Shown: positions 3,630-50,065, counted from the first letter of the stretch. The stretch: 64,000 nucleotides of DNA from Bacteroidales bacterium (GCA_040768485.1 JAXGMU010000002.1:40285-104284), one strand, 5' to 3'. The notes: generated by a model not told the origin, from the letters alone. Program-made: numbers and translations.

Positions 3630-6071
3630 ATGAAAGGTTCCGGCAGAAGATTCGGCACATTCGGGGGAGTTTTTGTGCCCAACATCCTGACCATCCTGGG
3701 TGTGATCATGTACCTGCGGATGGGCTGGGTGATTGGAAATGCCGGTTTGCGGCAGACACTGATCATCCTGGTCATCGCCAATCTGATCACGCTTTTTACC
3801 GCATTCTCCATCAGCGCTATCGCCACCAATATGAGGATGAAAGGAGGCGGCGCCTATTACCTGATATCCAGGTCGCTTGGTGCCGAAGTGGGGGGAAGCA
3901 TCGGGATCCCGCTCTACCTTGCACAGGCCCTGGTCATCAGTCTCTATATCGTGGGATTCGCCGAATCGCTGCAGTTGCTTTTCCCTGATCTGGAAGGCCT
4001 GCTTATCACCCTGACCACCCTTTCCGTACTGACGGTCATTGCCCTGATCAGTTCCCGGCTCGTGATCAGGATCCAGTACATCATCCTGAGCGTGATCATC
4101 CTCTCTCTTGTTTCGTTCTTTCTGGGAGAACCCGCTTCAGCGGCCAACATCCACCTGGACTCCGCCTACGTGGAAGGGTACGATTTCTGGTCTGTCTTTG
4201 CCGTTTTCTTCCCGGCGGTCACCGGGATCCTGTCCGGGGTGAGCCTGAGCGGTGATCTGAAGAACCCGGCCAGAAGCATCCCTGCCGGGACCATCCTTTC
4301 GGTGGTGGCAGGAGCCCTGGTTTACTTTCTCGTGGCCATCTGGTTCTCCCTGGTTGCCTCACCCGGGGAGCTCACCGGTGACAGCCTGATCATGGTTGCC
4401 ATTGCCAGGTGGGCACCACTGGTGTATGCGGGGATCTGGGGGGCCACCCTCTCTTCAGCGCTGGCCAATATCCTGGCTGCTCCGCGTACCCTCCAGGCGC
4501 TGGCGGCGGACAGGATCGTATTCCGGTTTTTGCGAAAAGGCAGGGGAAGGACCAATGAACCGGTCGTAGCCACCATTGTCACTTTCGTCCTGGTTGCAGG
4601 GGTGTTGCTGGTTGGTGAGCTGAATACGATCGCTCCGGTGCTGACCATCTTTTTCCTGATCACCTATGGTTCGGTCAACATCATCGCATTCCTGGAAGGG
4701 CTGATCAACAGACCGGGCTACAGACCCACTTTCCGGGTGCACTGGTTTGTATCACTCATCGGTGCAGCAGGATGCGTCTGGGTCATGTTCCTGATCAATC
4801 CGGTCGCCTGTGTCATCGGTTTTGTTTTCGTATTTGGAATATACCTGGTATTGAAACGGATTCAGATACAAAAGAACTGGGGTGATTTCAGGAAAGGCAT
4901 CTGGAGTTCCCTGACGCGGTATTCCCTGGTAAACCTGGAGCGGCTGACCGATCATGCCGTCACCTGGCGCCCGAGCCTGATGCTGATCGGCAGGGATCTG
5001 ATTGCCAAACAGAAGCTGGTTGAGGTGGCATTCGGACTGACCCAGAAATCCGGGTTCCTGACCTGCGTCAATCTCCAGAAATCGGGCGAATTCGATACGG
5101 AAAAGCTCAATGAGGATTCCGTCGAATTCAAAAAGATGCTGTATGAAAAAGGGATCAGTGCATTCTACAAAAATGCGATCGTGGAAAATTATCTGACCGG
5201 CCAGCTGATCGCCGCCCAGGTACATGGTGTGGGGGAATTCAGACCGAATACGATCCTGATGGACTGGTCCGAATCGATCAGGGGAACACACCAGAGGACA
5301 TCCACGGAGTCCACCAGCCAGTTCAAGCTGATACGTTTTTACAGTGAGCTGAACATCAGTATGATGCTGTATCATGTGAACGCTGATATCCAGCGGTCGG
5401 GTTACCGGAAGGTGGACGTCTGGTGGGACCCCGAGCAGAAGAACGGCAGTTTCATGCTGCTGCTGGCGCATCTGCTGGCTTCCGGCAGGTACTGGGGAGA
5501 GCTGAAACTCACCATCAAAACCGTGGTCCTGAGAGACAAGCTGGAGGAGACCCGGGAGCTGCTTGAAAAACTGGTGAACAAGTCCCGGATCAGGGCGGAC
5601 ATTGAGGTGCTCTGTCCGGATACCTCCGAGGAGCAGAGCCTGGGTCTCCAGTTCGAAAGGCACCGCAGGATGCACGAGCGTCAGGAAAAATGGCTTTCTT
5701 CACTCAGAAATGCACTCGGAATACGGGAAAATAAGAAGTATACCTACAGGGAGGAGCGGTCGCAGGAGGAGGAAAAACTTCATATCGATCCGCGGATCCT
5801 GGAAAGAGATGAACTGGAAGGGTCCGGTGATGATGACATTAAAGAAAAACTCTCCGGGCAGATCAGCGAAAGAGATACCTTCATCATCAGGAGGAACATC
5901 CGGGAGATCATTGCCGCCAATTCAAAGCAGGCGGACCTGGTGATGCTCGGATTTGTCATCCCTGCCAGGGGTAAAGAAAAGAAGTATATCGAAAAGACCC
6001 AGGCTTTGCTGGCCAGGCTCCCCGACACACTTCTTGTCAACTGTCCCTTCGACTTTGACCTGTCCGACTGA
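3630..6071 (+). CDS. APC-superfamily transporter of the SLC12 / cation-chloride cotransporter type with a large cytoplasmic C-terminal domain
   Basis: 813 aa. N-terminus FGTFGGVFVPNILTILGVIMYLRMGWVIGNAG is typical of CCC/SLC12 TM1. About 12 TM segments are followed by a soluble tail of about 350 aa. Confidence 0.75.
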   Translation: MKGSGRRFGTFGGVFVPNILTILGVIMYLRMGWVIGNAGLRQTLIILVIANLITLFTAFSISAIATNMRMKGGGAYYLISRSLGAEVGGSIGIPLYLAQALVISLYIVGFAESLQLLFPDLEGLLITLTTLSVLTVIALISSRLVIRIQYIILSVIILSLVSFFLGEPASAANIHLDSAYVEGYDFWSVFAVFFPAVTGILSGVSLSGDLKNPARSIPAGTILSVVAGALVYFLVAIWFSLVASPGELTGDSLIMVAIARWAPLVYAGIWGATLSSALANILAAPRTLQALAADRIVFRFLRKGRGRTNEPVVATIVTFVLVAGVLLVGELNTIAPVLTIFFLITYGSVNIIAFLEGLINRPGYRPTFRVHWFVSLIGAAGCVWVMFLINPVACVIGFVFVFGIYLVLKRIQIQKNWGDFRKGIWSSLTRYSLVNLERLTDHAVTWRPSLMLIGRDLIAKQKLVEVAFGLTQKSGFLTCVNLQKSGEFDTEKLNEDSVEFKKMLYEKGISAFYKNAIVENYLTGQLIAAQVHGVGEFRPNTILMDWSESIRGTHQRTSTESTSQFKLIRFYSELNISMMLYHVNADIQRSGYRKVDVWWDPEQKNGSFMLLLAHLLASGRYWGELKLTIKTVVLRDKLEETRELLEKLVNKSRIRADIEVLCPDTSEEQSLGLQFERHRRMHERQEKWLSSLRNALGIRENKKYTYREERSQEEEKLHIDPRILERDELEGSGDDDIKEKLSGQISERDTFIIRRNIREIIAANSKQADLVMLGFVIPARGKEKKYIEKTQALLARLPDTLLVNCPFDFDLSD

Positions 6072-21826: not shown

Positions 21827-22165
21827 ATGCCAGACAAATCAGCAACGCTGCCTGCAAAACCGGCAGAAAACCGAAGACTTCCGATCATCAACGAAGGTGC
21901 CAGAAAAAAGAGAATGCAGAAAAAATACCAGTTGCCCGTAATCGGACATTTCGCGGACCGCAGCGTTGAGTTCAAGAGCATTCTGGAAGCAGAAGCTGTT
22001 ACCGGGATCAATTACACCCTGATCTTTGAAGCGTGTATCGGCAAGATCTTCAAGGCCAAGAACGTTCACTGGGAGTATAAGAAAGGGAACCACTACATCA
22101 AATACAAAGCATACTACATTAACGCCCAGGAGAACTACCACCGGCTGGGCGGGTTTAATGGGTAA
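21827..22165 (+). CDS. small stand-alone DNA-binding protein resembling the NUMOD/IENR-type HTH module of phage homing endonucleases
   Basis: The motif FKSILEAEAVTGINYTLIFEACIGKIFKAKNVHWEYK follows the F-x-S-x-x-EA-x-x-x-GI...I...C..G...A.G..W.Y pattern seen C-terminal to HNH/GIY-YIG nucleases. No nuclease domain is present. The gene sits in an A/T-rich patch. Confidence 0.5.
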   Translation: MPDKSATLPAKPAENRRLPIINEGARKKRMQKKYQLPVIGHFADRSVEFKSILEAEAVTGINYTLIFEACIGKIFKAKNVHWEYKKGNHYIKYKAYYINAQENYHRLGGFNG

Positions 22166-22230
22166 TGTTGCTTCGCAACGTTAGATGAGTTAGGGAGTTA
22201 GGGGAGTTAGGAAAATCTTACATGAGGGGG

Positions 22231-22258
22231 CCTGTGCATGAGTGTGCGCAGGTTTTTT
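22231..22258 (+). terminator. rho-independent terminator after the small DNA-binding gene
   Basis: CCTGTGC-ATGAGTGT-GCGCAGG hairpin (one mismatch in the stem) followed by TTTTTT. Confidence 0.55.
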
Positions 22259-22286
22259 GTTTCCCGGAGATGCCGTTCTTCATAAT

Positions 22287-22363
22287 CTGAGGGATGCTTT
22301 TAAAGCAACCTGGCATCTTTTTGCGCCAGCAAAATTAGCACGTTGCTAGAAAGCATCCCTCAG
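22287..22363. repeat. 77-nt nested inverted repeat (three-tier hairpin) between gnd and the small gene
   Basis: Outer perfect 14-bp stem CTGAGGGATGCTTT / AAAGCATCCCTCAG. Middle 6-bp stem AGCAAC / GTTGCT. Inner 5-bp stem CTGGC / GCCAG with a 10-nt loop. No flanking U-run on either strand. Confidence 0.7.
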
Positions 22364-22435
22364 AAACAAAGAGAAGGATGACTATTTTAAGACAGACTCG
22401 CCTGACTCTCCGGAAGAATCTGCAGATAGGTTCCT

Positions 22436-23890
22436 TTAAGCATTGTACGTGGAAGAGCTGGTCGCTCCCCCGCGGCCGGTCCAGTTGGTATGGAAGAACT
22501 CTCCCCGCGGCCGGTCCAACCGCTCATAGGTATGGGCACCGAAGTAATCCCGCTGTGCCTGGAGCATGTTTGCCGGCAGGCGCTCAGAACGGTATCCGTC
22601 GAAATAGTTGAGCGCGGTGGTGAATGCCGGCACCGGGATCCCGTTGGACAGGGCGGTGGCGACCACCCTCCTCCAGCCGTCCTGGGCCGCTTCCACCTTC
22701 TTTTTGAAAAAGGGATCCAGTAACAGGTTGGGCAGGTCATTGTTGCGGTCGAATGCTTCCTTGATCCGTGCCAGGAATGCGGAACGAATGATGCAGCCAC
22801 CCCGCCAGAGCAGGGCAATCCCCCCGTAATTCAGTTCCCAGTCGTATTCATTTGCCGCCTCCCGCATCAGGGTGTATCCCTGTGCATATGAGACGATCTT
22901 GGAGGCATAAAGCGCCTGTTCGATGTCCCTGATAAATGCCTTTTTGTCCCCTTTAAATGCAGGATCCGGGCCTTTAAGGATCCTGGAGGCCTGCACACGT
23001 TCCTCCTTCAGTGCCGAGAGGCACCGTGCAAAGACAGCCTCACCGATCAGCGTGAGGGGGATGCCCAGATTCAGCGCCTCGATCCCCGTCCATTTCCCGG
23101 TACCCTTCTGTCCGGCCGTGTCCAGGATCTTCTCCAGCAGCGGTTCCCCGTCTTCATCCCTGAATGCAAGTATGTCCCGGGTGATTTCGATCAGGTAGCT
23201 GTCCAAATCGCCTGTATTCCATTCTCTGAATACTTCGTGCATCTCTTCATGGGTCATCCCCAGCAGGTTTTTCATCAGGTTGTAAGCTTCGCTGATCAGC
23301 TGCATATCCCCGTATTCGATCCCGTTGTGGACCATCTTGACAAAGTGCCCGGCACCATTGGCCCCGACCCAGTCGCAGCATGGTGTTCCATCCTCCACCT
23401 TCGCGGCGATACTCTGGAAGATCTCTTTCACGTGGGGCCAGGCACCGGCCGAACCTCCCGGCATGATGGAGGGACCCAGCAACGCGCCTTCTTCCCCTCC
23501 GGAAACCCCGGTCCCGATGTACAGCAATCCTTTTTCCTCCACATACCCCGTCCGCCTGATGGTGTCGGGAAAATGGGAATTACCCCCGTCAATAATGATA
23601 TCCCCTTCTTCCAGGTGCGGGATCAGCATTTGGATGAAATCATCCACCGGTTTTCCTGCCTTCACGAGCAGCATTACCTTCCTGGGCCGTTCCAGGGAGG
23701 CGATGAATTCCTCCACGGAATGCGCGCCGATAAATTTTTTCCCTTTCCCCCTCCCCTCCATGAAACGGTCCACTTTTTCAACCGTCCTGTTGTATACCGC
23801 CACCGTGTAGCCTTTGCTTTCCATGTTCAATACTAGGTTCTCACCCATCACGGCGAGTCCGATCAGTCCAATGTCAGCTTTTGTTTTCAT
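22436..23890 (-). CDS. gnd: 6-phosphogluconate dehydrogenase (decarboxylating)
   Basis: IGLIGLAVMGENLVLN, GGNSHF and HFVKMVHNGIEYGDMQLI motifs. 484 aa. Confidence 0.95.
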   Translation of the reverse strand: MKTKADIGLIGLAVMGENLVLNMESKGYTVAVYNRTVEKVDRFMEGRGKGKKFIGAHSVEEFIASLERPRKVMLLVKAGKPVDDFIQMLIPHLEEGDIIIDGGNSHFPDTIRRTGYVEEKGLLYIGTGVSGGEEGALLGPSIMPGGSAGAWPHVKEIFQSIAAKVEDGTPCCDWVGANGAGHFVKMVHNGIEYGDMQLISEAYNLMKNLLGMTHEEMHEVFREWNTGDLDSYLIEITRDILAFRDEDGEPLLEKILDTAGQKGTGKWTGIEALNLGIPLTLIGEAVFARCLSALKEERVQASRILKGPDPAFKGDKKAFIRDIEQALYASKIVSYAQGYTLMREAANEYDWELNYGGIALLWRGGCIIRSAFLARIKEAFDRNNDLPNLLLDPFFKKKVEAAQDGWRRVVATALSNGIPVPAFTTALNYFDGYRSERLPANMLQAQRDYFGAHTYERLDRPRGEFFHTNWTGRGGATSSSTYNA

Positions 23891-23937
23891 TTACATAATT
23901 GGTTTTTTGTTTGGTATTTATATGATTTTTTTTGCAA

Positions 23938-25071
23938 TCATTCCTGTATTACATTGAATCCCAGCTTCCTGAACACTTGAACGGTCCCGGCGGTTCCTCC
24001 CCGGAGCCGGAGCGTCCAGGCCGGGGGTTCCCTGCGCGGCGGATAACTCCCCCGGAGCATTTCAAAAGCGCCCGGATCTTCCCTCAGTCTCCTGTCATCC
24101 CTGGTTACATCGTACGTCTGACTGTATACCTCCCACAGGAGGGTTCCAGGGTCCTTTCCGGATGCATCTGCCCGGATCCCGGGCGAATCCGGCGGCGGGA
24201 TGTGCGGGGGTGTCCACCGGTCCAGTCCCAGTTGAAAAAAGCGGCTCACCGCCCTGACCGCCATGGTCGTTCCCCCGGCCTTTCCATCCATGGAGTATCC
24301 AGCGATATGAGGCGTCCCGATGGTGATCACATCCAGCAAATCCCTGTTGATGGCCGGTTCGCCGGAAAACACATCCAGAACTGTTCCTGCAAGCCTTCCC
24401 TTCCGGATCCCCTCCAGGAGTGAGGACTCGTCGACCACCCCACCCCGGGAGGTATTGATCAGGATGGCTCCCTTTCTGATCCGTTCCATAAAACGCCTGT
24501 CAACCATCCCCGCGGTATTGTCCCTGCCTCCCCGGTTCAGGGGCACATGCAGGGTGATGATATCGGCCTCCTCCAGGAGCCGGTCCAGTCCGGTGAACTG
24601 CTCTCCCCCTTCGGCACGCTGCCTGGGGGGATCGTTCAACAGCACGTTCATCCCCAGGGCATCTGCAGCCTCTGCAACCAGGCTTCCCACATGTCCCACT
24701 CCCACCACACCCAGGGTCAGGTCACTCAGATCAAACCCCATTCTGAGCGCCAGGTGAAGCAGCACCGACACCATGTACTGCTGCACGGAGGACGCATTGC
24801 AGCCCGGTGCATTGGTCCACCTGATCCCTGCCCTTCGGCAATATTCCGTGTCGATGTGATCAAAACCGATGGTGGCCGAGGCGATCATCCGTATACCGGT
24901 ATGCTCCAGAAGGGCCCGGTCGCACCGGGTCCGCGTCCTCGTGATCAGGCATTCCGTATCTTTCAGATCCGGCTGTCTGATTTCGCTTCCCGGCAGGTAC
25001 GACACCTCTGCCGCTTCTTCAAAAGCGCCCCTCAGGAACGGGATCCGCTCATCTGCCACGATCCGGATCAT
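23938..25071 (-). CDS. pdxB: 4-phosphoerythronate dehydrogenase
   Basis: Collinear with E. coli PdxB as recalled: MxIxxDExxP start, TATxGxDHxD, NAPGCNA, GVVGVGxVG, TPHIAGYSxxGKxxGT, and the PdxB-specific C-terminal dimerisation domain (YDVxRDD). Confidence 0.85.
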   Translation of the reverse strand: MIRIVADERIPFLRGAFEEAAEVSYLPGSEIRQPDLKDTECLITRTRTRCDRALLEHTGIRMIASATIGFDHIDTEYCRRAGIRWTNAPGCNASSVQQYMVSVLLHLALRMGFDLSDLTLGVVGVGHVGSLVAEAADALGMNVLLNDPPRQRAEGGEQFTGLDRLLEEADIITLHVPLNRGGRDNTAGMVDRRFMERIRKGAILINTSRGGVVDESSLLEGIRKGRLAGTVLDVFSGEPAINRDLLDVITIGTPHIAGYSMDGKAGGTTMAVRAVSRFFQLGLDRWTPPHIPPPDSPGIRADASGKDPGTLLWEVYSQTYDVTRDDRRLREDPGAFEMLRGSYPPRREPPAWTLRLRGGTAGTVQVFRKLGFNVIQE

Positions 25072-26345
25072 CCGCGGGCAAATTTATCCTTCCAGGACCA
25101 GAGTCCCAGTGCAGGATTGGAAACGAAATAAATCTCCTCCCCGTCTGCCAGCCGGTTATATCCCTCCTTCAATTTAGCGGGATTGTACCGGGAGATCATA
25201 TCGCCAAGATCCGCATACTGGTAATTCACCGATTCAATCTCTTCCTTTGAGAGGTGACCCGGACAGTAGGTGACCCTGAACCTCCCCTCCGAAGAACCAT
25301 GGATCAGGTGTGCCGCGGCACTCAGGTTCTGCCTCAGTTCTTCATGGTGTTCCACCGCATCCAGGATCTCCGGTGTGGTTTTGTAACCGTACTTCCTGAT
25401 CAGCCGGTCGATCTCCCTGTCCTCCCCGAATTCCTTGAGCCCGGGTGCCAGCACCAGCAGTTCTCCCCCTCCGGCCAGTGCCATCCGGGTCCTGTAGATG
25501 CTTTTATTCCCGAGCCAGGTGCTCCTGAATTCTTCGGGCTCAAGGTACACCACGATCTTTTCCAGGGGTTTGTCCAGCAACACAAAATTTACCTCCAGGG
25601 AGAGTTCAGACGCCCTGAGGAAACACTGTGCATCGTCCCCGATAAACAGACCGCGGACCACCAGGCGGCCCGACCGGTCCCTGCCCACGACGGTCAGGAC
25701 ATAAAGCAGCGGCAGATCGGAGGTGAAATGTCCGGAGGCATAATTGAGCACTTTTCTCACAGGCGTGTCGGCCCGTCCCATGATCCGTTCCAGTCCGTAT
25801 GCAGCCCCCAGGAAATGACTCTTGTTGATACCCTCAGGCCCCCCGGTCCCCACGAAAATATTCTTGTTGTAGTTTGCCATTCCGGCCACTTCATGGGGGA
25901 CCACCTGGCCGATGGATACGATCAGGTCATGTCCCCCTTTTACGATCATGGTATTCAACTGTGCGGGCCAGCTGTAGGAGACCATTCCCCCGGATACCTC
26001 TTTCAGAAAGCTTCCCGGCACCTCACCCACGGTGACCACATCATTCCTCCAGTCATGCACCCGGAACAGGGAAACCGGCACATCCGGGAACATTCTGCGG
26101 ATCTCCGGTCCGGTCATGGGTTCATGGGTGCCGATGGCGGGCAGGATATCGGTGAGCCGCTCTCCGTAGTATTCATGGACAAACTGGGTGATCAGCCCGG
26201 CCCTGCTGTAAAATCTGGTGATATCCGGCGGGATGGCTAGCACCCTGTTCCGGTGGCCCGCTTTGTCAAGAGCCCGGAATAATCCCTCCCTGATCTCCTC
26301 ATCGGTCAGGGCCACATCGGGCCCGCCCTTTTCAAAATAGATCAT
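25068..26345 (-). CDS. LarA-family (lactate racemase domain, DUF2088) protein; candidate nickel-pincer 2-hydroxyacid racemase or epimerase
   Basis: 425 aa with the general N-terminal LarA layout (IPPDITR..., GTHEPMT, VVPHEVAGM, NKNIFVGTGG). 4-nt ATGA overlap with pdxB. Substrate not assignable from sequence. Confidence 0.7.
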   Translation of the reverse strand: MIYFEKGGPDVALTDEEIREGLFRALDKAGHRNRVLAIPPDITRFYSRAGLITQFVHEYYGERLTDILPAIGTHEPMTGPEIRRMFPDVPVSLFRVHDWRNDVVTVGEVPGSFLKEVSGGMVSYSWPAQLNTMIVKGGHDLIVSIGQVVPHEVAGMANYNKNIFVGTGGPEGINKSHFLGAAYGLERIMGRADTPVRKVLNYASGHFTSDLPLLYVLTVVGRDRSGRLVVRGLFIGDDAQCFLRASELSLEVNFVLLDKPLEKIVVYLEPEEFRSTWLGNKSIYRTRMALAGGGELLVLAPGLKEFGEDREIDRLIRKYGYKTTPEILDAVEHHEELRQNLSAAAHLIHGSSEGRFRVTYCPGHLSKEEIESVNYQYADLGDMISRYNPAKLKEGYNRLADGEEIYFVSNPALGLWSWKDKFARG

Positions 26346-26398
26346 TTGCAGATTGTTTTGGTAAGCTTACATGGTTACAATCCTTGGCCTTTAATCCC

Positions 26399-27250
26399 TT
26401 ATACTCCTCCGTATGCGCTGTATCCTCCATCCACCGGGATGCATATTCCGGTGATGAACCGGCTCAGGTCCGAAAGCAGGTAGAGGACGGTCCCGTTGAG
26501 ATCGTCAGGATCCCCGAACACCCCCATGGGCGTACTGGCGATGATCTTTTCTCCCCGGGGAGTCAGTTTGCCGGTTTTCTCGTCCAGCAGGAGGAACCTG
26601 TTCTGACTGGTCAGGAAAAAACCGGGTGCAATCGCGTTCACCCGCACGCCAACCTTTGCGAAATGCACCGCCAGCCACTGGGTAAAATTGTTGATGGATG
26701 CTTTCGCGGCCGAATATGCCGGGATCTTCGTCAGCGGTCTGAAGGCGTTCATGGAAGAGATGTTCAGCACCACACCTCTCTGCCTGGCGGCCATCTCCCG
26801 GGTAAATACGAGGGTGGGCAACAGCGTTCCCGTAAAATTCAGGTCAAACACTTTACGGAAACCATCCAGTTCAATTCCGAAAAATCCTTCGTCCATCCTG
26901 TTCAGGTCCTCTTCGGTGATCTGTTCCAGCCGGGTGGTGGCCCTGGGCGAATTTCCGCCCGCTCCGTTGATCAGCATGTCCACCCTGCCCGCCTCCCGGA
27001 GAATCTTTTCCCGCACCGCCTCGAGAGATTCCTTGTCCAGCACATCGGCTTTGTATCCGAAAGCGCGCACACCGGTCTCAGAGCGGATCTCTTCCGCAAG
27101 GCGGGAAGCTGCCTCCTCGTTGATATCCAGGATGACGGTGACCACCCCCGCCGAGGCCAGTCCCCGCGCAATCGATGATCCAAGCACACCCCCACCTCCG
27201 GTGATCACGCAGATCTTGTCTTTCAGGTCTTCGAATGATAATTGTTCCAT
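26399..27250 (-). CDS. SDR-family oxidoreductase (UxuB-like, short-chain D-mannonate/fructuronate oxidoreductase type)
   Basis: VITGGGGVLG Rossmann motif, NGAG, and catalytic YSAAK. The start is set at MEQLSFEDL (ATG at 27250), 1 nt after the LacI stop. Confidence 0.8.
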   Translation of the reverse strand: MEQLSFEDLKDKICVITGGGGVLGSSIARGLASAGVVTVILDINEEAASRLAEEIRSETGVRAFGYKADVLDKESLEAVREKILREAGRVDMLINGAGGNSPRATTRLEQITEEDLNRMDEGFFGIELDGFRKVFDLNFTGTLLPTLVFTREMAARQRGVVLNISSMNAFRPLTKIPAYSAAKASINNFTQWLAVHFAKVGVRVNAIAPGFFLTSQNRFLLLDEKTGKLTPRGEKIIASTPMGVFGDPDDLNGTVLYLLSDLSRFITGICIPVDGGYSAYGGV

Positions 27251-27251
27251 G

Positions 27252-28313
27252 TCAGTGTTGTGATTTGGGTTCGTAAAATGCCAGGTTTTCCCTGGTAATG
27301 ATATCGATGGGAAGAAACTGCTTCCGCTCGGGTTCCCGGTCAAAGGCAACCAGGTTAAACAGCGATGTAAGTCCTCTGAATGCCTGTTCTTCAGGCCTTT
27401 GGGAAATCAGAAAATCGATATAATCCCTTTTCAGATATTCGATGCTCTCCGGGAGCAGGTCGTATCCCACCAGCCGGATGTTCATGGTGCCGCGGGAGGC
27501 CAGGTACCCGGCAACCAGGTGGACCCGGGAATTGGTCACAAAGATCCCCGCAATGTCATACCTTGCAAATGCCTCCTCCAGCCGCTCCTCCATCTCGTGA
27601 TCACCGGCCCCGTTCAGATCAATGGTGAGCAGATGGTCCGGCCGGCCGCCATGTTCCTCAAAAAAACTCCTGAATCCTTTTTCACGCTGGATGATATGGG
27701 CATAATGATCCTTCCGTGCGGAAAGGTTCATGATGAGCACATCCTTCCCGGGAAGCATCCCGTAATCGATGAGCCTGGCCGCCACCATTCCGCTGTGAAA
27801 GGCATCCTGACCCACAAAACTCCTGACGGCCGGAGACTCCAGCATGGAATTGAAAAGGACCACCGGCAGGTTCCATCGGCCGCACTGTTCAAGGAATTCC
27901 ACCGATTCCTTCTGAAAAACGGGTGCGAACAGGACCCCGTGGAGCTGTTCATAGGGAAATCCATTCGCCAGCTTGAGGAAATCTTTCCGGTCGATCTGGT
28001 CGAAATTGAAATGTTCCACATGGAGGTGGTAATGGGACAGTTCCTCAAGGACCCTGTCGATCCCTTTCCGGGGCAGTTTCCAGAATACGTGTTCGTTCAC
28101 GATCTTCGGCATCACCACCGCCAGGCGGATCTCCCGCTTCAAAGCCAGCGAACTGGCCATAAAATCAGGCTTGTAGTTGTATTCGCGCAGCAATTTCTGG
28201 ATCTTCTCGCGGGTTGCATCGGACACTTCGCCCCGGTTATGGATCACCCGGTCCACCGTTCCGATGGATACCCGGGCGATTTCAGCGATATCCTTGATCC
28301 TGATTCTCCGCAT
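27252..28313 (-). CDS. LacI-family transcriptional regulator
   Basis: N-terminal HTH IKDIAEIARVSIGTVDRVIHNRGEVS plus a periplasmic-binding-protein-like effector domain. Confidence 0.9.
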   Translation of the reverse strand: MRRIRIKDIAEIARVSIGTVDRVIHNRGEVSDATREKIQKLLREYNYKPDFMASSLALKREIRLAVVMPKIVNEHVFWKLPRKGIDRVLEELSHYHLHVEHFNFDQIDRKDFLKLANGFPYEQLHGVLFAPVFQKESVEFLEQCGRWNLPVVLFNSMLESPAVRSFVGQDAFHSGMVAARLIDYGMLPGKDVLIMNLSARKDHYAHIIQREKGFRSFFEEHGGRPDHLLTIDLNGAGDHEMEERLEEAFARYDIAGIFVTNSRVHLVAGYLASRGTMNIRLVGYDLLPESIEYLKRDYIDFLISQRPEEQAFRGLTSLFNLVAFDREPERKQFLPIDIITRENLAFYEPKSQH

Positions 28314-28463
28314 AATTATTTATTATGAGACGCTTACGCAATTTTTACGAAGCACACAAAGTGGTTCGTCACCACCAAAATTAATGAAAATATTTTGTAA
28401 ATGAGAAGAGAATTGCCTATTTTCGTGTTCGTACACGGAAACAATCAGATAATCCTCAGATTC

Positions 28464-29711
28464 ATGAAACTTGAGAAATATTCTTTCGGGATTGGCGACA
28501 GGTTCGCACAACAGGGTGAGGCACAGCTCAGTGCCATCATGAAAGCGGCTGAAAGGGGCGTGGAGATCGTTCCGGTCTGGAACAAATCCAACCGCGAACA
28601 CCAGAACATCCACTCTTCCCCATCGGACACCAGGAAGGAAGCCGATGATGCGGTGCGGAAACTGGGCTGGGAGCATTCCTATTACGTGGATGCGGACCAC
28701 ATCAACCTGGACACGGTGGACCGCTTTCTTCCCCACTCCGATTTTTTTACCCTGGACGTGGCCGGATATCTGGGAAAGGAAGTACCCGCAGAAGAGCTGA
28801 AAGAATTCCTGGGCGCCGCGGAAGGGTTGACGGGCAGGTTGCAGATCCCGGGGATCGGCGAGCCATTTCATATATCAGAGGGTATCCTGAAAAAGATTGC
28901 CGGGACATTCCTCGGGGCAGTGAAGGAGGCATCGGCCATCTACAGGCACATCGCATCCAGAAAGGGGGCGGACCATTTTGTGGCGGAGATCTCCATGGAC
29001 GAAGTGGAGGAGCCGCAGACACCCGTGGAACTTTTTTTTATCCTGATGATGATCAGTTACTTTGATATTCCCGTCCAGACGATCGCACCCAAATTCACGG
29101 GAAGGTTCAACAAAGGAGTGGACTACGTGGGGGATGTGGTGCAGTTCCGGAAAGAGTTTGAACAGGACCTGCTCGTCATCGATCATGCCGTCAAATCCTT
29201 CGGACTCCAGGAGAACCTGAAGCTGAGCGTACACTCGGGCAGCGACAAATTCACTATTTATCCGATCATGGGGGAACTGATCCGTAAACATGACAAAGGC
29301 ATCCACCTGAAAACAGCGGGCACGACCTGGCTGGAAGAGGTGATCGGACTGGCGCTGTCGGGAGATGATGCACTTCAGATGGCAAGGGCCATCTACGCCC
29401 GTGCGTTCGAAAGGCGGGAGGAGTTGTGCGCACCCTATGCCACTGTGATCGATATTGATCCGGACACCCTTCCGGGTCCGGACGAGGTCAACAGATGGAG
29501 CGGTGAGAAATTTGCCGGAACCCTGCGGCACGTGCCGGACCATCCCCATTACAATCCGGGATTCCGGCAACTGATCCACGTGGGATACAAAGTGGCCGCC
29601 GATATGGGCGAGCAGTACCTTTCCATGGTGAGGAAATACAGCCGGGTGGTCGGGGATCAGGTAGAGACCAACCTTTTCGACAGGCATATCAGGCGGTTGT
29701 TCGGCATATGA
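28464..29711 (+). CDS. uxaE: tagaturonate/fructuronate epimerase family protein
   Basis: MKLEKYSFGIGDRFAQQG start and DADHINLD motif match the UxaE family as recalled. Lies directly upstream of uxaC. The start is moved to the ATG at 28464. Confidence 0.6.
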   Translation: MKLEKYSFGIGDRFAQQGEAQLSAIMKAAERGVEIVPVWNKSNREHQNIHSSPSDTRKEADDAVRKLGWEHSYYVDADHINLDTVDRFLPHSDFFTLDVAGYLGKEVPAEELKEFLGAAEGLTGRLQIPGIGEPFHISEGILKKIAGTFLGAVKEASAIYRHIASRKGADHFVAEISMDEVEEPQTPVELFFILMMISYFDIPVQTIAPKFTGRFNKGVDYVGDVVQFRKEFEQDLLVIDHAVKSFGLQENLKLSVHSGSDKFTIYPIMGELIRKHDKGIHLKTAGTTWLEEVIGLALSGDDALQMARAIYARAFERREELCAPYATVIDIDPDTLPGPDEVNRWSGEKFAGTLRHVPDHPHYNPGFRQLIHVGYKVAADMGEQYLSMVRKYSRVVGDQVETNLFDRHIRRLFGI

Positions 29712-29768: not shown

Positions 29769-31169
29769 ATGAAAAAATTTTTGGACCAGGACTTCCTGCT
29801 GGAAAATGAAACGGCCCGCAGGCTCTACCATGAATATGCCAGCAAGATGCCGATAATCGATTACCATTGCCACCTGAATCCCGAACAGATTGCCGGGGAT
29901 GTGAATTTTGAGAACCTGACCAGGATCTGGCTGGCGGGGGATCATTACAAGTGGCGGGCGATGCGGGCAAACGGAGTGGACGAAAAGTACTGCACGGGCG
30001 ATGCGCCGGACAGGGAAAAATTCATGAAATGGGCAGAAACCGTGCCGGACACCATCCGCAATCCACTCTACCACTGGACACACCTGGAACTGCAGCGGTA
30101 TTTCGGGATCTCTGAGCTGCTCCATGCCGGTTCGGCGGAAGGGATCTACCGGCAGGCAAACGAACTGCTGGCCACTAAGGAGTTCAGCGTCAGGCAACTC
30201 ATCCGGAAAATGAATGTGGAGGTGATCTGCACCACGGATGACCCGGTGGATACCCTGGAACACCACCGGAAAATCCGGGGAGACGGATTCGAGACCCTGG
30301 TCCTGCCCGCCTGGCGTGCCGACAAGGCACTGGCGGTGGAGGATCCGGACCGGTACAACCAGTACCTTGGAATGCTTGAAGCCGCCTCGGGCATTTCCAT
30401 ATCCACCTACATGGATTTGCTAACGGCCCTGAGCAACAGGCATGACTTTTTCAATGAAATGGGCTGCAGGGTATCGGACCACGGGATGGAGACCTTCCAT
30501 GCAGATGATTTTGATCATCAGGACATCGAAAGGATCTTTTTGAAGATCAGGAAAGGAAGGAAACCGAACAAGCAGGAAATAAGTCAGTTCAAATCAGCCA
30601 TGCTGATCGAGCTGGCAGTCATGGACCACGAGAAGGACTGGGTCCAGCAGTTCCATGTGGGAGCGATCCGGAACAACAACACCCGGAGGTTCCACGAACT
30701 GGGTCCGGATACCGGCTATGACTCCATCGGGGATTTCAAGATGGCACGGACCCTGTCCAGGTTCCTGGACGCGCTGGATCAGCGCGAACAGCTGGCAAAG
30801 ACCATCCTTTACAACCTCAATCCCGGCGACAATGCGCTGATGGTGACCATGGCCTGCAATTTCAACGACGGGATCACGCCGGGCAAGATGCAGCACGGTT
30901 CCGGCTGGTGGTTCCTCGACCAGAAGTACGGCATGACCGACCAGATCAACACCCTCTCTGCCCTCGGACTGCTCAGCCGTTTCGTGGGTATGCTGACCGA
31001 CTCCCGGAGTTTTCTCTCCTATCCCAGGCATGAATATTTCAGGAGGATCCTCTGCAACCTGGTGGGAACGGATGTGGAAAAGGGAGAGATCCCAGATGAT
31101 CCCGCGATGCTGGAGAACCTGATCAGCAATGTGTGTTACCACAATGCGAAAAATTACTTCGGGTTTTGA
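29769..31169 (+). CDS. uxaC: glucuronate isomerase
   Basis: FLLENETARRLYHEYA..MPIIDYHCHL, GDHYKWRAMR, HLELQRYFGI. Confidence 0.95.
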   Translation: MKKFLDQDFLLENETARRLYHEYASKMPIIDYHCHLNPEQIAGDVNFENLTRIWLAGDHYKWRAMRANGVDEKYCTGDAPDREKFMKWAETVPDTIRNPLYHWTHLELQRYFGISELLHAGSAEGIYRQANELLATKEFSVRQLIRKMNVEVICTTDDPVDTLEHHRKIRGDGFETLVLPAWRADKALAVEDPDRYNQYLGMLEAASGISISTYMDLLTALSNRHDFFNEMGCRVSDHGMETFHADDFDHQDIERIFLKIRKGRKPNKQEISQFKSAMLIELAVMDHEKDWVQQFHVGAIRNNNTRRFHELGPDTGYDSIGDFKMARTLSRFLDALDQREQLAKTILYNLNPGDNALMVTMACNFNDGITPGKMQHGSGWWFLDQKYGMTDQINTLSALGLLSRFVGMLTDSRSFLSYPRHEYFRRILCNLVGTDVEKGEIPDDPAMLENLISNVCYHNAKNYFGF

Positions 31170-36937: not shown

Positions 36938-37780
36938 ATGGCAATTCATTATGAAGTAAGACTTTCGCATCATCCCGGGGATACAAAGCAGTACGGGACG
37001 GAAAAGATCCGGAAGGAGTTCCTCGTGGAGAAACTGATGGTCGGCGGTGAGATCAACCTGGTCTATTCGCTGTACGACCGGTTTATCGTCGGCGGAGCTG
37101 TTCCCGGAAAGGAGAAGCTTGAGCTGACCACCATCGATCCGCTGAAATCTGAGCATTTCTGTGACCGCCGGGAATTGGGGATCATCAACGTGGGAGGGGA
37201 TGCCGAAATACGCGTGGACGGGGAAAGCTATCCCCTCGGATACAAAGATGCCCTCTATGTGGGGGCCGGCTCAAAAAAGATTGTGTTCTCGAGCAGGGAC
37301 CAAACCAGGCCCGCACACCTGTACCTCAACTCGGCACCCGCCCATCATGCCTATCCCACCAGGCGGATCACCCTGGCTGACGCCGAGGTGGTTGAACTGG
37401 GCGCCCCGGAACAGTCCAATGCACGCAGGCTGAACAAATTGCTTGTGAACAGTGTGGTGGATACCTGCCAGCTGCAGATGGGAATGACCGAACTGAAAAC
37501 GGGCAGTGTCTGGAACACGATGCCTCCCCATACGCACACCCGGCGGATGGAAACCTATTTCTATTTTGAGGTGCCGGAGGACCAGGCCATCTGCCACCTG
37601 ATGGGAGAACCCGATGAAACCAGGCTCATCTGGCTCAAAAATGAACAGGCGGTCATCTCCCCGCCATGGTCCATTCATGCAGCCGCGGGAACCAGCAACT
37701 ATATCTTCATCTGGGGAATGGCCGGTGAGAACCTGGATTACGGCGATATGGACGTGGTAAAGCCCTATGAACTCAGGTAA
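36938..37780 (+). CDS. kduI: 5-dehydro-4-deoxy-D-glucuronate isomerase
   Basis: 280 aa. RFIVGGAVP, RELGIINVGG, HTHxRRME.YFYF and IWGMAGEN motifs of KduI. Confidence 0.95.
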   Translation: MAIHYEVRLSHHPGDTKQYGTEKIRKEFLVEKLMVGGEINLVYSLYDRFIVGGAVPGKEKLELTTIDPLKSEHFCDRRELGIINVGGDAEIRVDGESYPLGYKDALYVGAGSKKIVFSSRDQTRPAHLYLNSAPAHHAYPTRRITLADAEVVELGAPEQSNARRLNKLLVNSVVDTCQLQMGMTELKTGSVWNTMPPHTHTRRMETYFYFEVPEDQAICHLMGEPDETRLIWLKNEQAVISPPWSIHAAAGTSNYIFIWGMAGENLDYGDMDVVKPYELR

Positions 37781-38157: not shown

Positions 38158-38946
38158 ATGTCAGTAAAACTATTCGATCTAACAGGAAAACGGGCGCTGG
38201 TAACCGGCGGAACCCATGGCCTTGGAATGGCTATCGCAACCGGACTGGCCGAAGCAGGCGCCACCATCATTGTCAACGACAGGTTTCCCGAAAAGCTTGA
38301 AACCGCCAGAGAGGAATACGGTGAAAAGGGCATCACGGTCCATACCTATATCCTGGATGTCACCGATGAGGACGCCGTGACCCAGGCAATCCCCCGCATC
38401 GAAAAGGAAGCGGGTCCCATTGACATCCTGGTGAACAATGCCGGGATCATCAAGCGGGTCCCCATCTTGGATATGAAAGCCGACGAGTTCCGGGAAGTCC
38501 TCGACGTGGACCTCACGGGACCATTCATCATGTCAAAGGCGGTGGCCGCCGGGATGATCAGACGCGGCCGGGGGAAGATCATCAACATGTGCTCCATGAT
38601 GAGCGAACTGGGAAGGGACACCGTTTCCGCCTATGCCTCCGCAAAAGGAGGACTGAAGATGCTCACCCGGAGCATGGCCACCGAATGGGCCAAATACAAC
38701 ATCCAGATCAACGGCATCGGTCCCGGTTACTTTGCCACGGCCCAGACGGCACCCATCCGTGTGGACGGGCATCCTTTCAATGACTTTATCATCAACCGGA
38801 CCCCGGCAGGCCGTTGGGGCAACCCGGAAGATCTGGCCGGCACGGCCATCTTCCTCGCTTCCTCCGCCTCCGATTTCGTGAACGGGGTCGTGGTCTACGT
38901 GGATGGCGGCATCCTTGCCACCATCGGAAAACCCATGAATGAATAA
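38158..38946 (+). CDS. kduD: 2-dehydro-3-deoxy-D-gluconate 5-dehydrogenase / gluconate 5-dehydrogenase (SDR)
   Basis: ALVTGGTHGLG, NNAG, YASAKGG and GRWG.PEDL motifs. Context next to kduI. Confidence 0.85.
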   Translation: MSVKLFDLTGKRALVTGGTHGLGMAIATGLAEAGATIIVNDRFPEKLETAREEYGEKGITVHTYILDVTDEDAVTQAIPRIEKEAGPIDILVNNAGIIKRVPILDMKADEFREVLDVDLTGPFIMSKAVAAGMIRRGRGKIINMCSMMSELGRDTVSAYASAKGGLKMLTRSMATEWAKYNIQINGIGPGYFATAQTAPIRVDGHPFNDFIINRTPAGRWGNPEDLAGTAIFLASSASDFVNGVVVYVDGGILATIGKPMNE

Positions 38947-42361: not shown

Positions 42362-42382
42362 TTGGATTATCGTTAGTTTTGA

Positions 42383-42402
42383 AGGTGCAATCGATTGTGC
42401 AA
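42383..42402. promoter_or_regulatory. second copy of the LacI-type operator (AGGTGCAATCGATTGTGCAA)
   Basis: 17 of 20 positions identical to the 35856-35875 site, including a 14-nt identical core GTGCAATCGATTGT. Lies between the -7 box and the eda start codon. Confidence 0.6.
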
Positions 42403-42408
42403 ACAACC

Positions 42409-43071
42409 ATGAAAAGAATTGATGTGGCCTTGAAAATGAGGGAAACCGGTGTGGTTCCCCTCTTCTACCATCCCGACATCGAGATCTGTAAAAAAGTGAT
42501 TGCCGCCTGTTACAGGGGAGGCATGACCCTCTTCGAATTCACCAACCGGGGCGATCATGCCCACGAGACCTTTTCGGAACTTGTCAAATGGGCAAAGAAG
42601 GAAATGCCCGACCTGGTCATGGGCGTTGGTTCGGTGGTCGACCCCGGCACATGCGCGCTGTACATCCAGCTTGGGGCAAAATTCATCGTCTCCCCACTGC
42701 TCAACGAAGAGATGGGCAGGATTTGCAACCGCAGGAAGGTATTATGGATCCCCGGCTGCGCCACGGCATCTGAGATCAGCCGGGCGGAGGAAGCCGGGGC
42801 GGAGATCATCAAGATATTCCCCGGTCCCACCGTGGGAGGTCCCGCCTTTATAAAAGCCTACCTGGGGCCCTGTCCGTGGTCAAATCTCATGCCGTCAGGC
42901 GGTGTGTCACCCACAATGGAAAACCTCACGGAATGGTTCAGTGCAGGGGCTTTTGCAGTGGGGATGGGTTCCCGGCTGATCACCAGGGAGATCCTCACAG
43001 AACAGAATTACAGGAAACTGGAAGAAGCCGCAAGATATACGGTGGAATCCATTCAGAAAATCAGAAGTTAA
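42409..43071 (+). CDS. eda: 2-dehydro-3-deoxyphosphogluconate / 4-hydroxy-2-oxoglutarate aldolase
   Basis: KDPG aldolase layout (VVPLFYH, FEFTNRG, GVGSV, IVSP, PG..T.SE, IKIFP). The start is set at the ATG at 42409. Confidence 0.85.
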   Translation: MKRIDVALKMRETGVVPLFYHPDIEICKKVIAACYRGGMTLFEFTNRGDHAHETFSELVKWAKKEMPDLVMGVGSVVDPGTCALYIQLGAKFIVSPLLNEEMGRICNRRKVLWIPGCATASEISRAEEAGAEIIKIFPGPTVGGPAFIKAYLGPCPWSNLMPSGGVSPTMENLTEWFSAGAFAVGMGSRLITREILTEQNYRKLEEAARYTVESIQKIRS

Positions 43072-46021: not shown

Positions 46022-46048
46022 AGACAAACCGTTTAATTGAAATGCCTT

Positions 46049-47551: not shown

Positions 47552-47562
47552 ACTTTAAGAAA

Positions 47563-48894: not shown

Positions 48895-50065
48895 TTTTCG
48901 CCGGGAGGAAAGTAGCGGGAGCAGATACAGGATCGGCATCGCGGGACCCGGAAAGGTGGCCCACCTTCATGCAAAGGCGATCGGTGAGATAGGGAATGCT
49001 GTCCTCGCCGGGGTCTGTTCCAGGTCAATGTCGCGGGCCACTACTTTCGCTTCCCTTTACGGCGCCCGGTCCTATAACGATGTGGGAGGGATGGTCCGGA
49101 CAGAGAAGCTGGATCTGGTGATCATCTGTACACCCCATCCCAACCACCTTGAACCGGCCCTGCAGGCCCTGGAGGCCGGAGCACACCTCCTGGTGGAAAA
49201 ACCCCTGGCTTCCACGCTCCAGGATTGCGATGCCATGATCGGAGCAGCCGCGAAGGCGGGCCTGAAACTGGGAGTGGTGAGCCAGCGCCGCTGGTACCCT
49301 CCCACCCTGCGCGTCAAAAAAGCCATTGATGAAGGTAAGATCGGGAAGCCCGTCCTGGGAACGGTCCAGATGCTCGGATGGAGGGATGAAGCATATTACC
49401 GCTCTGATCCGTGGAGGGGTTCCTGGAACATGGAAGGAGGCGGTGTGATGGTCAACCAGGCCCCGCACCAGCTGGACCTGCTGAGCTGGTTGATGGGACC
49501 GGCGGAAGAGTTGTTCGGAACATGGGATAACCTGAACCATCCGTATATCGAAGTGGAGGATACGGCCCTGGCCATTGTCAGGTTCAGGAGCGGCGCCCTG
49601 GGGAACATCATACTTTCCAACTGCCAGAAACCGGGCATCTACGGGAAGATCCACGTTCACGGAGAAAACGGGTCCACGGTGGGTGTGCAGACCGAGGGAG
49701 GTTCCATGTTCATTGCAGGCATGACCCCCATCTCCGAGCCCCCGGTAAACGACCTGTGGACCGTCCCCGGAGAAGAGAAGATGCTGGATGGATTTATCAG
49801 AGAGGACCGGGAGCTGTTCGAACGGATCGACCCGATGGTCCATTTCATCCGGCTGCAGATCCAAGAGTACCTGGATGCGCTGGAAACCGGGCGGGATCCG
49901 CTGGTCACCGGGCAGGAAGGACGCAAAACCGTTGAGCTTTTTACGGCCGTTTACCGGTCGGCAAGGGACCGGGTGCCGGTGAAATTCCCGCTGGAGCCGG
50001 AAACCGGCCGCAGTGACTTTAACGGCCGCCTTTCTGCCGGGGGACAAACATTCAGAACAGCCTGA
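48863..50065 (+). CDS. Gfo/Idh/MocA-family oxidoreductase
   Basis: [12 protein letters not shown] Rossmann start and EKP motif (LLVEKPLA). The only canonical in-frame start (ATG at 48863) overlaps the last 32 nt of xylA. The true start is uncertain. Confidence 0.75.

Follow-up and report, generated by a model that had tools for sequence, protein, structure and literature searches.

We found that a five-gene operon in the analysed window, a stretch of 64,000 nucleotides from an uncultured Bacteroidales bacterium, together with the divergent uxaE-uxaC genes and a kinase gene of the PfkB family (pfkB1), probably encodes a route by which hexuronates enter the pentose phosphate pathway without a dehydratase step, a reading to which we assign a probability of about 0.7. 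In this route UxaC, plus UxaE in the case of galacturonate, would yield fructuronate, which would be reduced to D-mannonate by an SDR-type reductase. The LarA-like protein of the operon would then invert C2 by a hidden redox cycle of the LarA type, in which hydride is passed to the pyridinium cofactor, a 2-keto intermediate arises and two histidines act as acid and base. After phosphorylation at C6 by PfkB1, Gnd would decarboxylate 6-phosphogluconate to ribulose-5-phosphate and thereby regain the reducing equivalent of the SDR. The bypass idea as such has already been published (Rodionova 2012 for Thermotoga, PMC3750489; Desguin 2020, PMC7583248). The window contains the following features:

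27252-28313, minus strand: regulator of the LacI family, heading the operon and divergent from uxaE-uxaC (Pfam LacI HTH and Peripla_BP_4, a sugar-binding domain of the periplasmic-binding-protein type)
26399-27250, minus strand: SDR, predicted fructuronate reductase / D-mannonate oxidoreductase with UxuB function (NF006132, 382 bits, cut-off 281)
25068-26345, minus strand: LarA-like protein of group 18 (LarAH18), predicted sugar-acid epimerase (NF052594, 651.3 bits, cut-off 500)
23938-25071, minus strand: probable PdxB, 4-phosphoerythronate dehydrogenase (NF001309, 422.7 bits, cut-off 434; DUF3410 dimerisation domain)
22436-23890, minus strand: Gnd, decarboxylating NADP-dependent 6-phosphogluconate dehydrogenase (TIGR00873, 779 bits)
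22310-22329, minus strand: terminator-like hairpin 3' of gnd (pattern scan, consensus match only)
28401-29711, plus strand: UxaE-family tagaturonate/fructuronate epimerase (PF16257, E 2.6e-51)
29769-31169, plus strand: UxaC uronate isomerase, full length (PF02614, E 5e-208)
36938-37780: kduI
38158-38946: kduD
42379-43071, plus strand: Eda, KDPG aldolase, final enzyme of the KduI/KduD/KdgK branch that handles unsaturated uronates (PF01081)
51452-52525, minus strand: PfkB1, diverged KdgK-like kinase of the PfkB family, with only weak KDG-kinase-like matches
52582-53742, minus strand: PfkB2, probable KdgK (2-keto-3-deoxygluconate kinase), with stronger KDG-kinase-like matches than PfkB1

An ORF check reproduced every coordinate, the order and the spacing of the five minus-strand genes that a previous sequence-only reading of this DNA had reported. 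The SDR gene starts with an ATG at 27250, 1 nt past the LacI stop codon, and is separated by 53 nt from the LarA-like gene; the latter overlaps pdxB by 4 nt and a gap of 47 nt precedes gnd. A pattern scan of positions 22000-28500 detected no terminator-like site in the intergenic gaps of the operon, the hairpin behind gnd being the sole one outside coding sequence. In many related loci a LacI orthologue is found at the corresponding place. Profile matches were also obtained for each of the other uronate genes named earlier (uxaC, uxaE, the UxuB-like SDR, kdgK and eda), with PfkB2 as the probable kdgK product.

The LarA-like protein is a full member of group 18 as judged from its sequence, carrying all catalytic and cofactor-binding residues. 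It covers positions 4-410 of the 411 positions of profile NF052594 and scores above the curated cut-off; the profile corresponds to group 18 of Desguin et al. 2020, annotated as "putative hexonate epimerase" ("G2E3") (PMC7583248). A sequence match to the Thermotoga maritima GntE2 structure (PDB 4NAR) was found with an E value of 1.3e-33. The AF2 model (pLDDT 88.9, pTM 0.87) has the two-domain LarA fold: the best 15 of the Foldseek matches listed, similar further chains left aside, are all LarA-family structures, with 4NAR on top (TM 0.77), followed by LarA racemases, and with 2YJG, 9EID, 6C1W and 5HUQ at TM 0.66-0.69. The catalytic histidine pair is kept in the form of H74 and H151 (H108 and H174 in the alignment with LarA, 2YJG), which are invariant in 32 homologues and 13 further ones. 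Likewise invariant are D41, R44, K161, H177 and K281, the counterparts of LarA D72, R75, K184 (the tether), H200 (the Ni ligand) and K298, while LarA Ser71 is replaced by Pro40, as throughout group 18. The catalytic histidines, the NPN-binding lysine and the Ni-ligand histidine that the sequence-only reading had singled out for an alignment with LarA are thus all present. The signature of groups 18-20, an E-V/S loop after the second catalytic histidine and a tryptophan in helix 11 (PMC7583248), is found as H151-E152-V153 and W277, both invariant in the homologues compared. LarAH18 showed no singleton departures at 78 columns that are invariant among 110 homologues, and a second LarA homologue of the same genome is likewise intact and without unusual substitutions. 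As a member of the LarA superfamily, LarAH18 would bind the nickel-pincer nucleotide and need it for activity. We predict a C2-epimerase acting on D-mannonate/D-gluconate or on their 6-phosphates; interconversion of D-mannonate and D-gluconate is suggested by the neighboring SDR and Gnd and by homology to GntE2, which epimerises D-mannonate (PMC7583248). In the literature searched we found no biochemical assay of any group-18 enzyme; for this group the function of a hexonate epimerase had been predicted, with SDR and Gnd as neighbors (PMC7583248).

We surveyed the gene context of LarAH18 in 51 loci, each spanning 12 kb or more, from Bacteroidota, Ignavibacteria, Planctomycetota, Verrucomicrobiota, Acidobacteriota and Spirochaetota. 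The gene adjoins gnd in 42 loci and a mannonate-reductase SDR in 41; uxaC is present in 30 and uxaE in 26. PfkB kinases, often encoded directly beside the epimerase, were of the pfkB1 type in 16/51 and pfkB2-like in 23/51. Among 17 genera of the window's own order, LarAH18 and Gnd show an identical distribution (the same 7 genera), and PfkB1 orthologues are confined to these genera, being present in six of them and absent from the 10 others. Given this context, the earlier proposal that mannonate is led to 6-phosphogluconate past UxuA is well supported at the level of the family; for the source organism it is less secure, as described below. In three genomes (G025, G034 and G270) uxuA itself lies within the operon, between the SDR gene and pfkB1-LarAH18, which marks mannonate as the branch point. 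In the source genome gnd is present in a single copy and Zwf is encoded as well, so that Gnd is not reserved for the shunt but takes part in the normal oxidative pentose phosphate pathway as well.

The lack of uxuA noted in the window extends to the whole assembly, in which profile searches detected neither UxuA nor UxaA, and no ManD above the cut-off. Two uncharacterised ORFs elsewhere in the genome resemble acid-sugar dehydratases of the enolase superfamily; their scores, 83 and 156 bits, are far below the ManD cut-off of 550, but they may still be dehydratases. The statement that gluconokinase is missing holds in so far as GntK of either type (TIGR01313, TIGR01314) gave no match above the cut-off in the assembly, and the FGGY kinase of the window is XylB-like. 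A kinase is nevertheless present in the window: orthologues of PfkB1 (71-79% identity) are encoded directly beside LarAH18 in G025, in G034 and in 16 of the 51 loci. In the source genome the pfkB1 gene is located 25 kb from the operon. The PfkB2 orthologue is paired with eda in G025 and G031. PfkB1 is probably the kinase "missing" from the operon, and its neighborhood in other genomes makes it a candidate mannonate or gluconate 6-kinase.

Such a kinase could also act before the epimerase. PfkB1 would then be a mannonate kinase and LarAH18 the 6-phosphomannonate 2-epimerase that awaits assignment to a gene in Lactobacillus suebicus, an order we regard as possible but clearly short of an even chance. 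Both activities were found in L. suebicus extracts with the genes unassigned (PMC6978723), and in the literature searched we found no later paper naming them. In addition, the kinase beside LarAH18 is KdgK-like and not GntK, and LarAH18 has the invariant basic residues R100/K, K175, R287, K318 and R355 at positions occupied by F, T, Q, E and T in GntE2; as judged from the alignment these could be phosphate binders. However, free D-mannonate is the substrate of all characterised enzymes of the GntE branch (PMC7583248, PMC11770544), and by analogy with them epimerization before phosphorylation is slightly favored.

PdxB had been counted as part of the sugar-acid setting of the LarA-like gene. 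We found instead that it is probably a housekeeping gene of DXP-dependent PLP (vitamin B6) synthesis, which travels with gnd, and would be co-transcribed with it, rather than with the epimerase: it is the sole copy in the source genome, pdxJ is encoded elsewhere in that genome (269 bits, above cut-off), and pdxB and gnd are adjacent even where LarAH18 is located on another contig. Catalysis by this PdxB-like dehydrogenase in the sugar-acid route, for example oxidation of a phosphorylated hexonate at C2, appears highly improbable. It could be read from the 4-nt overlap with the epimerase gene, from the position of pdxB between LarAH18 and gnd in 18/51 loci and from the score slightly below the model cut-off, a cut-off passed by the orthologues in 20 of 41 genomes searched. 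Against it, relatives also have one copy per genome, including genera without LarAH18 or Gnd, pdxJ is present, the pairing with gnd persists away from the epimerase gene, and most other phyla have no pdxB at this locus. As 6-phosphogluconate dehydrogenase is inhibited by 4-phosphoerythronate (PMC6449344), we infer that the pairing may serve the consumption of this inhibitor by PdxB.

The absence of larB, larC and larE from the window was confirmed for the whole assembly (estimated 95% complete, 189 contigs): LarC was not detected, and the LarB and LarE models match only PurE and PP-loop paralogues. The three models do detect the genes of T. maritima. In congeners larE-larC-larB lies between nikR and a gene for a DsbD_2/UreH-like (nickel-permease-like) membrane protein, and LarC is present in 24/24 of them. 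The corresponding site of the source genome is contiguous and lar-free with 32 bp between the flanking genes, and neither partial lar genes at contig ends nor remnants were found anywhere in the assembly. The source assembly has thus lost larE-larC-larB cleanly. It follows that LarAH18 may be an apo-protein in the source organism, and without larBCE in the assembly its function there is not secure. That the lar genes are real but unassembled, either relocated to a missing region or deleted in the assembled variant of a mixed population, is quite unlikely. The incomplete, fragmented assembly and the presence of two intact client enzymes in need of the cofactor speak for it; the contiguous syntenic site, contig ends free of partial lar genes and the same absence in closed genomes of other lineages speak against it.

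The sequence-only reading had named a genome without larBCE as a refutation of the bypass. The assembly is such a genome, but the argument is weakened since the same absence is seen in many complete genomes in which the operon is retained. Among 16 Bacteroidota genomes with LarAH18 and a completeness of at least 99%, nine lack LarB, LarC and LarE altogether, two of the nine being single-contig genomes. In a diverse set of 50 LarAH18 genomes LarC is lacking in 21, among them the closed chromosomes OY782677 and OY775912. These lar-less genomes retain the full operon and every catalytic and cofactor-binding residue. On the LarAH18 tree the distribution of LarC requires at least 5 changes.

An intact LarAH18 without lar genes could obtain its cofactor by salvage, mature by a different route or use a cofactor of another kind. 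We consider it slightly less than an even bet that LarAH18 is active without LarB, LarE and LarC of its own, through uptake of the cofactor or a late precursor, through unrelated biosynthetic enzymes or with a different cofactor. The lar-less genomes, the repeated changes on the tree and the lack of decay in LarAH18 and in the second homologue are consistent with this. However, the literature searched contains no report that the nickel-pincer cofactor is taken up or salvaged, and very divergent biosynthetic genes could evade the HMMs. Moreover, LarAH18 and LarC co-occur almost perfectly within the window's order (6/7 genera), and nikR-larB-larC-larE adjoin the operon in the isolate Saccharicrinis sp. 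FJH62 (L076), which both speak for a dependence on lar. Under the opposite reading the shunt is dead in the source organism: larE-larC-larB would have been deleted recently, leaving the epimerase as an apo-protein, monomeric glucuronate and galacturonate would be unusable, and unsaturated uronates alone would go through KduI, KduD, KdgK and Eda. We regard this as unlikely. It agrees with the clean gap set against 24/24 congeners, the lack of remnants and the missing UxuA or UxaA as alternative dehydratase, but both LarA-family genes are intact without unusual substitutions, and long-lived lar-less lineages retain the operon, so lar loss does not generally kill the pathway.

In summary, the gene set and the shunt idea were known, while the kinase candidate, the role of PdxB, the clean lar loss and the lar-less pattern are new. 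Tentatively, and at somewhat less than even chances, we propose that group-18 epimerases are kept active in lar-less bacteria, with PfkB1 and LarAH18 as genes for orphan activities and pdxB-gnd as a drain. The main point of interest are the lar-less genomes with intact operon and binding residues. If the proposal is true, members of a community would share the nickel-pincer cofactor or a precursor, which would amount to a new form of cofactor cross-feeding, or alternatively there would be a further way to make or replace this cofactor. Two orphan activities, mannonate kinase and 6-phosphomannonate (or mannonate) 2-epimerase, would find their genes in those of the KdgK-like PfkB and LarAH18, and the pdxB-gnd pair would have its own means of removing 4-phosphoerythronate, the inhibitor of Gnd. 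The route, if active, would channel uronic acids from pectin into the pentose phosphate pathway.

Compared with group 18 as described by Desguin, LarAH18 has the same signature (PHEV loop, W277, NK281) and the same published neighbors (SDR, 6-phosphogluconate dehydrogenase, ribokinase-family kinase and uxaC), without any difference at the protein level. T. maritima GntE2 (LarAH20, TM0442, PDB 4NAR) shares fold and catalytic residues but belongs to a different LarA group, with an identity of only about 24%. The T. maritima operon, gnd-uxaR-uxaE-uxaD-gntE-gntK, has the pathway logic and the gene set of uxaE, SDR reductase, epimerase, kinase and gnd in common with the genes described here (PMC3750489). 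Its kinase is an FGGY GntK and its regulator the GntR-type UxaR, in contrast to a KdgK-like PfkB and a LacI-type regulator here, and T. maritima has larB/larC/larE, none of which is found in the source assembly. The galacturonate pathway of L. suebicus (Valk et al. 2020) likewise runs via UxaC, UxaE and fructuronate reductase to 6-phosphogluconate and Gnd; it is redox-neutral and dehydratase-free, as the route proposed here would be. There mannonate kinase precedes 6-phosphomannonate 2-epimerase, both with unassigned genes, and the matching order is a candidate here. Corynebacterium glutamicum GntE1 (LarAH19) shares the GntE branch, the uronate context and LacI-type regulators nearby; larB and larE are often encoded beside group 19 epimerases, while lar genes are rarely near group 18 epimerases (1/51 loci). 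Lactiplantibacillus plantarum LarA, a lactate racemase (PDB 5HUQ), shares the fold, the catalytic histidine pair, the cofactor-holding lysine and histidine and the carboxylate-binding arginine and lysine. It is 14-17% identical to LarAH18, which differs by a predicted substrate of hexonate size and by the lack of a lar operon.

The sequence-only reading had described five co-directional genes on the minus strand, and their coordinates and spacings were all reproduced.

Genes of the minus-strand operon
27252–28313, minus strand: LacI gene (ORF call)
26399–27250, minus strand: SDR gene, 1 nt past the LacI stop; start at 27250 verified by translation
25068–26345, minus strand: LarA-like gene (LarAH18), after a gap of 53 nt behind the SDR gene
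23938–25071, minus strand: PdxB-like gene, overlapping the LarAH18 gene by 4 nt
22436–23890, minus strand: Gnd gene, after a gap of 47 nt behind pdxB

A pattern scan detected no terminator-like site in the intergenic gaps of the operon; the sole intergenic one is located about 110 nt downstream of gnd. uxaE and uxaC are divergent from the LacI gene, and kduI, kduD, eda, a TRAP transporter and two PfkB kinases (PfkB1, 51452–52525, and PfkB2, 52582–53742, both on the minus strand) are found elsewhere in the window. Searched for a LacI operator, the lacI/uxaE intergenic region yielded no inverted repeat and shared no element with the region upstream of pfkB2, so that a regulon link was not obtained. 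A sigma-70 promoter scan stayed at chance level (6 found versus 4.3 expected). Following the TRAP transporter, the stretch 46037–51521 codes for an FGGY kinase resembling XylB, a protein of 456 aa that weakly matches a xylose-isomerase-like TIM barrel, a GFO/IDH/MocA oxidoreductase and an ORF of 502 aa without family; it is a separate sugar module within the uronate island.

Gnd and UxaC are textbook family matches, and at 382 bits the SDR exceeds the cut-off of the NCBIfam model for D-mannonate oxidoreductase. The LarA-like protein passes NCBIfam NF052594 with 651 bits (cut-off 500), a model named 'nickel-dependent putative hexonate epimerase'. In the classification of Desguin et al. 2020 it is equivalent to group 18, which was labelled putative hexonate epimerase by these authors, its commonest neighbours being an SDR, 6-phosphogluconate dehydrogenase, a ribokinase-family kinase and uxaC (PMC7583248). 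Among solved structures T. maritima TM0442 (GntE2, PDB 4NAR) is the closest, with an E value of 1.3e-33 for the sequence and a TM score of 0.77 for the fold. The alignment with LarA proposed by the sequence-only reading was carried out with the lactate racemase apoprotein 2YJG, and all catalytic and cofactor residues are present in LarAH18.

Residues of LarAH18 and their LarA counterparts
D41: LarA D72
R44: LarA R75
H74: LarA H108
H151: LarA H174
K161: LarA K184
H177: LarA H200
K281: LarA K298

All seven residues are invariant across 32 homologues, which come from at least six phyla. Among 110 full-length homologues 78 columns are invariant, and LarAH18 deviates at none of them (0/78).

It had been suggested for this locus that mannonate, formed from uronates via fructuronate, is converted to 6-phosphogluconate by LarAH18 and a kinase and passed on to Gnd, bypassing UxuA. 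With one genome scanned per species, more than 585 relatives of 60–73% identity were obtained. Neighbours were counted at those 51 loci for which 12 kb of DNA or more was available.

Genes near LarAH18
gnd: 42/51 loci
SDR: 41/51 loci
uxaC: 30/51 loci
uxaE: 26/51 loci
pfkB2-like PfkB kinase: 23/51 loci
pfkB1-type PfkB kinase: 16/51 loci

At many of these loci a PfkB kinase directly adjoins the epimerase gene. In the window's own order the genera with LarAH18 are exactly those with Gnd, 7 of 17; PfkB1 orthologues (72–88% identity) are present in 6 of the 7 and in none of the 10 other genera, and LarC is present in 6 of the 7. In three genomes the operon itself includes uxuA, with the SDR on one side and PfkB1-LarAH18 on the other, which makes mannonate a branch point between the classical dehydratase and the shunt. 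The lack of uxuA seen in the window extends to the whole source assembly (G000), where profile searches for UxuA, UxaA and ManD gave no match above cut-off; on paper the shunt is therefore its only exit from mannonate. Supported by synteny and co-occurrence, the shunt has in our estimate a probability of about 0.8 at family level, and it is also likely, if a little less firmly, in this organism, where cofactor loading is unexplained. It would allow redox-neutral, dehydratase-free use of pectin and glucuronide sugars and, as the number of relatives shows, is widespread in anaerobic polysaccharide degraders.

Some further genes were observed in the course of these searches. Contigs 89 (L138:1781–3163, minus strand) and 32 (L139:1010–2434, plus strand) of G000 each encode an acid-sugar dehydratase-like member of the enolase superfamily, 460 and 474 aa long, respectively. 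Both proteins have a long N-terminal extension and score under the cut-off of every named dehydratase family, ManD among them. Two Mannitol_dh_C matches are located elsewhere in the assembly, and a Zwf match on contig 23 (22500–23936) lies within a 714-aa open frame, suggesting a fusion with another domain. In two unrelated genomes small ORFs of the PD-(D/E)XK_3 nuclease family are inserted between operon genes (L034:11185–11616 and L130:12500–12874).

The sequence-only reading had reported no gluconokinase. This stands for canonical GntK, neither type of which was found in G000 by profile searches, but the window does contain a candidate C6 kinase. PfkB1 is a diverged paralogue (34% identity) of PfkB2, the more KdgK-like of the two, which has an orthologue paired with eda elsewhere. 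PfkB1 orthologues adjoin LarAH18 in other genera and show the same phyletic pattern, which makes PfkB1 the best candidate for a C6 kinase, predicted to act on mannonate or gluconate. The FGGY kinase at 46037–47551 was considered as the missing gluconokinase and rejected. It is xylulokinase-like, scores best with XylB (299 bits) and reaches 133 bits with gntK_FGGY against a cut-off of 649; the gene it adjoins resembles xylose-isomerase-like TIM barrels only weakly. Phosphorylation might also precede epimerization. Basic residues specific to and invariant in LarAH18 (R100, K175, R287, K318 and R355) correspond to F, T, Q, E and T in GntE2 and hint at a phosphate site, which would suit this order; we consider it possible but the less probable one. 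Concrete kinase and epimerase candidates become available for two enzyme activities without assigned genes, the kinase and epimerase steps demonstrated in Lactobacillus suebicus extracts.

The PdxB-like gene is the only copy in G000, pdxJ is present elsewhere in the assembly, and nearly every relative has one pdxB, including three genera without LarAH18 and Gnd. Where LarAH18 is located on another contig, as in two genera, pdxB is still immediately upstream of gnd. Single copy number, pdxJ and this adjacency indicate that pdxB-gnd is the conserved unit and PdxB probably the housekeeping PLP enzyme. A second, pathway-specific paralogue was rejected, since each genome has a single copy, which genera without the epimerase possess too; that PdxB is catalytic in the sugar-acid chemistry is very improbable. 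The PdxB substrate 4-phosphoerythronate inhibits 6-phosphogluconate dehydrogenase (PMC6449344). Co-expressed PdxB would remove it and shield Gnd at high pentose-phosphate flux, which we infer to be a plausible basis of the pairing. In two closed genomes without lar genes (L126:10983–11873 and L127:11074–13257) the immediate neighbour of LarAH18 is a 296-aa HAD-family hydrolase, and one of these genomes has a PFK-family (PF00365) kinase in place of the PfkB kinase; the hydrolase is compatible with a 4-phosphoerythronate drain and proves nothing. In congener G018 (100% complete, 10 contigs) the single pdxB is split into two frames near codon 180 (L030:11398–12527), either by a frameshift or by a sequencing error.

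The nickel-pincer cofactor genes larB, larC and larE, which had not been seen in the window, are missing from all of G000: LarC gave no match in a profile search, and PurE and PP-loop paralogues are all that the models for LarB and LarE detect. LarC is present in 24/24 congeners searched, in which the gene order is ADOP permease, nikR, larE, larC, larB and a DsbD_2/UreH-like membrane protein. On contig 41 of G000 the permease gene, nikR and the membrane-protein gene of this set follow one another without interruption, nikR and the membrane-protein gene being only 32 bp apart (junction at about 5200–5270), and lar remnants were not found in the assembly. The contiguous junction without remnant indicates a clean three-gene absence in the assembly and not a contig break, and makes it quite unlikely that lar genes are present but unassembled. 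The nikR and DsbD_2/UreH-like genes lie side by side at L033:4528–5666 (minus strand), the latter possibly encoding a nickel permease. A second LarA-superfamily gene, intact and adjacent to an APS kinase, is located on contig 31 (12671–13900; L040:4671–5900, plus strand; 409 aa). Its product matches Lar_N (E 4e-42) and, best in the PDB, malate racemase Mar2 (6D6Z, E 5e-48), keeps the motifs SDKTR, GTH, HH...GGGRK and NH, and stays below every NCBIfam LarA-group cut-off; it would represent a second nickel-pincer-type enzyme, of malate-racemase type, in a genome without lar genes.

LarB, LarC and LarE are likewise all absent from 9 of 16 LarAH18-carrying Bacteroidota genomes that are at least 99% complete, two of the nine being single-contig. 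LarC is absent from 21 of 50 diverse LarAH18 genomes, including two closed chromosomes. Most sampled Ignavibacteria, Phycisphaerae-class and Paludibacter genomes are LarC-negative, each group also having LarC-positive members, and LarC presence or absence changes at least 5 times on the LarAH18 tree. Genomes without lar genes retain the whole operon and every cofactor-binding residue. Recent inactivation of the pathway in the source genome is doubtful; that LarAH18 functions without endogenous lar genes, by salvage, another route or another cofactor, is a tentative explanation falling just short of even odds. Partial lar sets were observed in the genomes behind L058, L092 and L060 (G301, G324 and G302), two of which encode no more than the N-terminal part of LarC (ORFs of about 280 aa), while one, a closed Anaerohalosphaeraceae chromosome, has LarE and no LarC; these are possibly stages of loss.

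To our knowledge, current thinking always ties LarA homologues to LarB/LarE/LarC. The papers covered stress the opposite case, lar genes without LarA, and we found neither cofactor salvage nor LarA homologues of lar-less genomes discussed in them; they did not include the 2014 Nature Communications lar survey, which may mention the pattern. A large set of complete genomes with the client enzyme and without the makers would bear on the prediction of nickel-pincer enzymes from genomes, on cofactor exchange within communities and on how far apo-protein annotations deserve trust. This pattern is the part worth following.

The locus is a further example of an already named locus type, to which we add a kinase candidate, the pdxB-gnd unit, the absence of larE-larC-larB in G000 and the wide occurrence of LarAH18 without lar genes. 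The bypass put forward by the sequence-only reading is essentially a published pathway: it was proposed for Thermotoga by Rodionova et al. 2012, with the operon gnd-uxaRED-gntEK (PMC3750489), and backed by the 2020 GntE2 assay (PMC7583248). In Lactobacillus suebicus extracts Valk et al. showed the same pathway in the other order, kinase then epimerase (PMC6978723).
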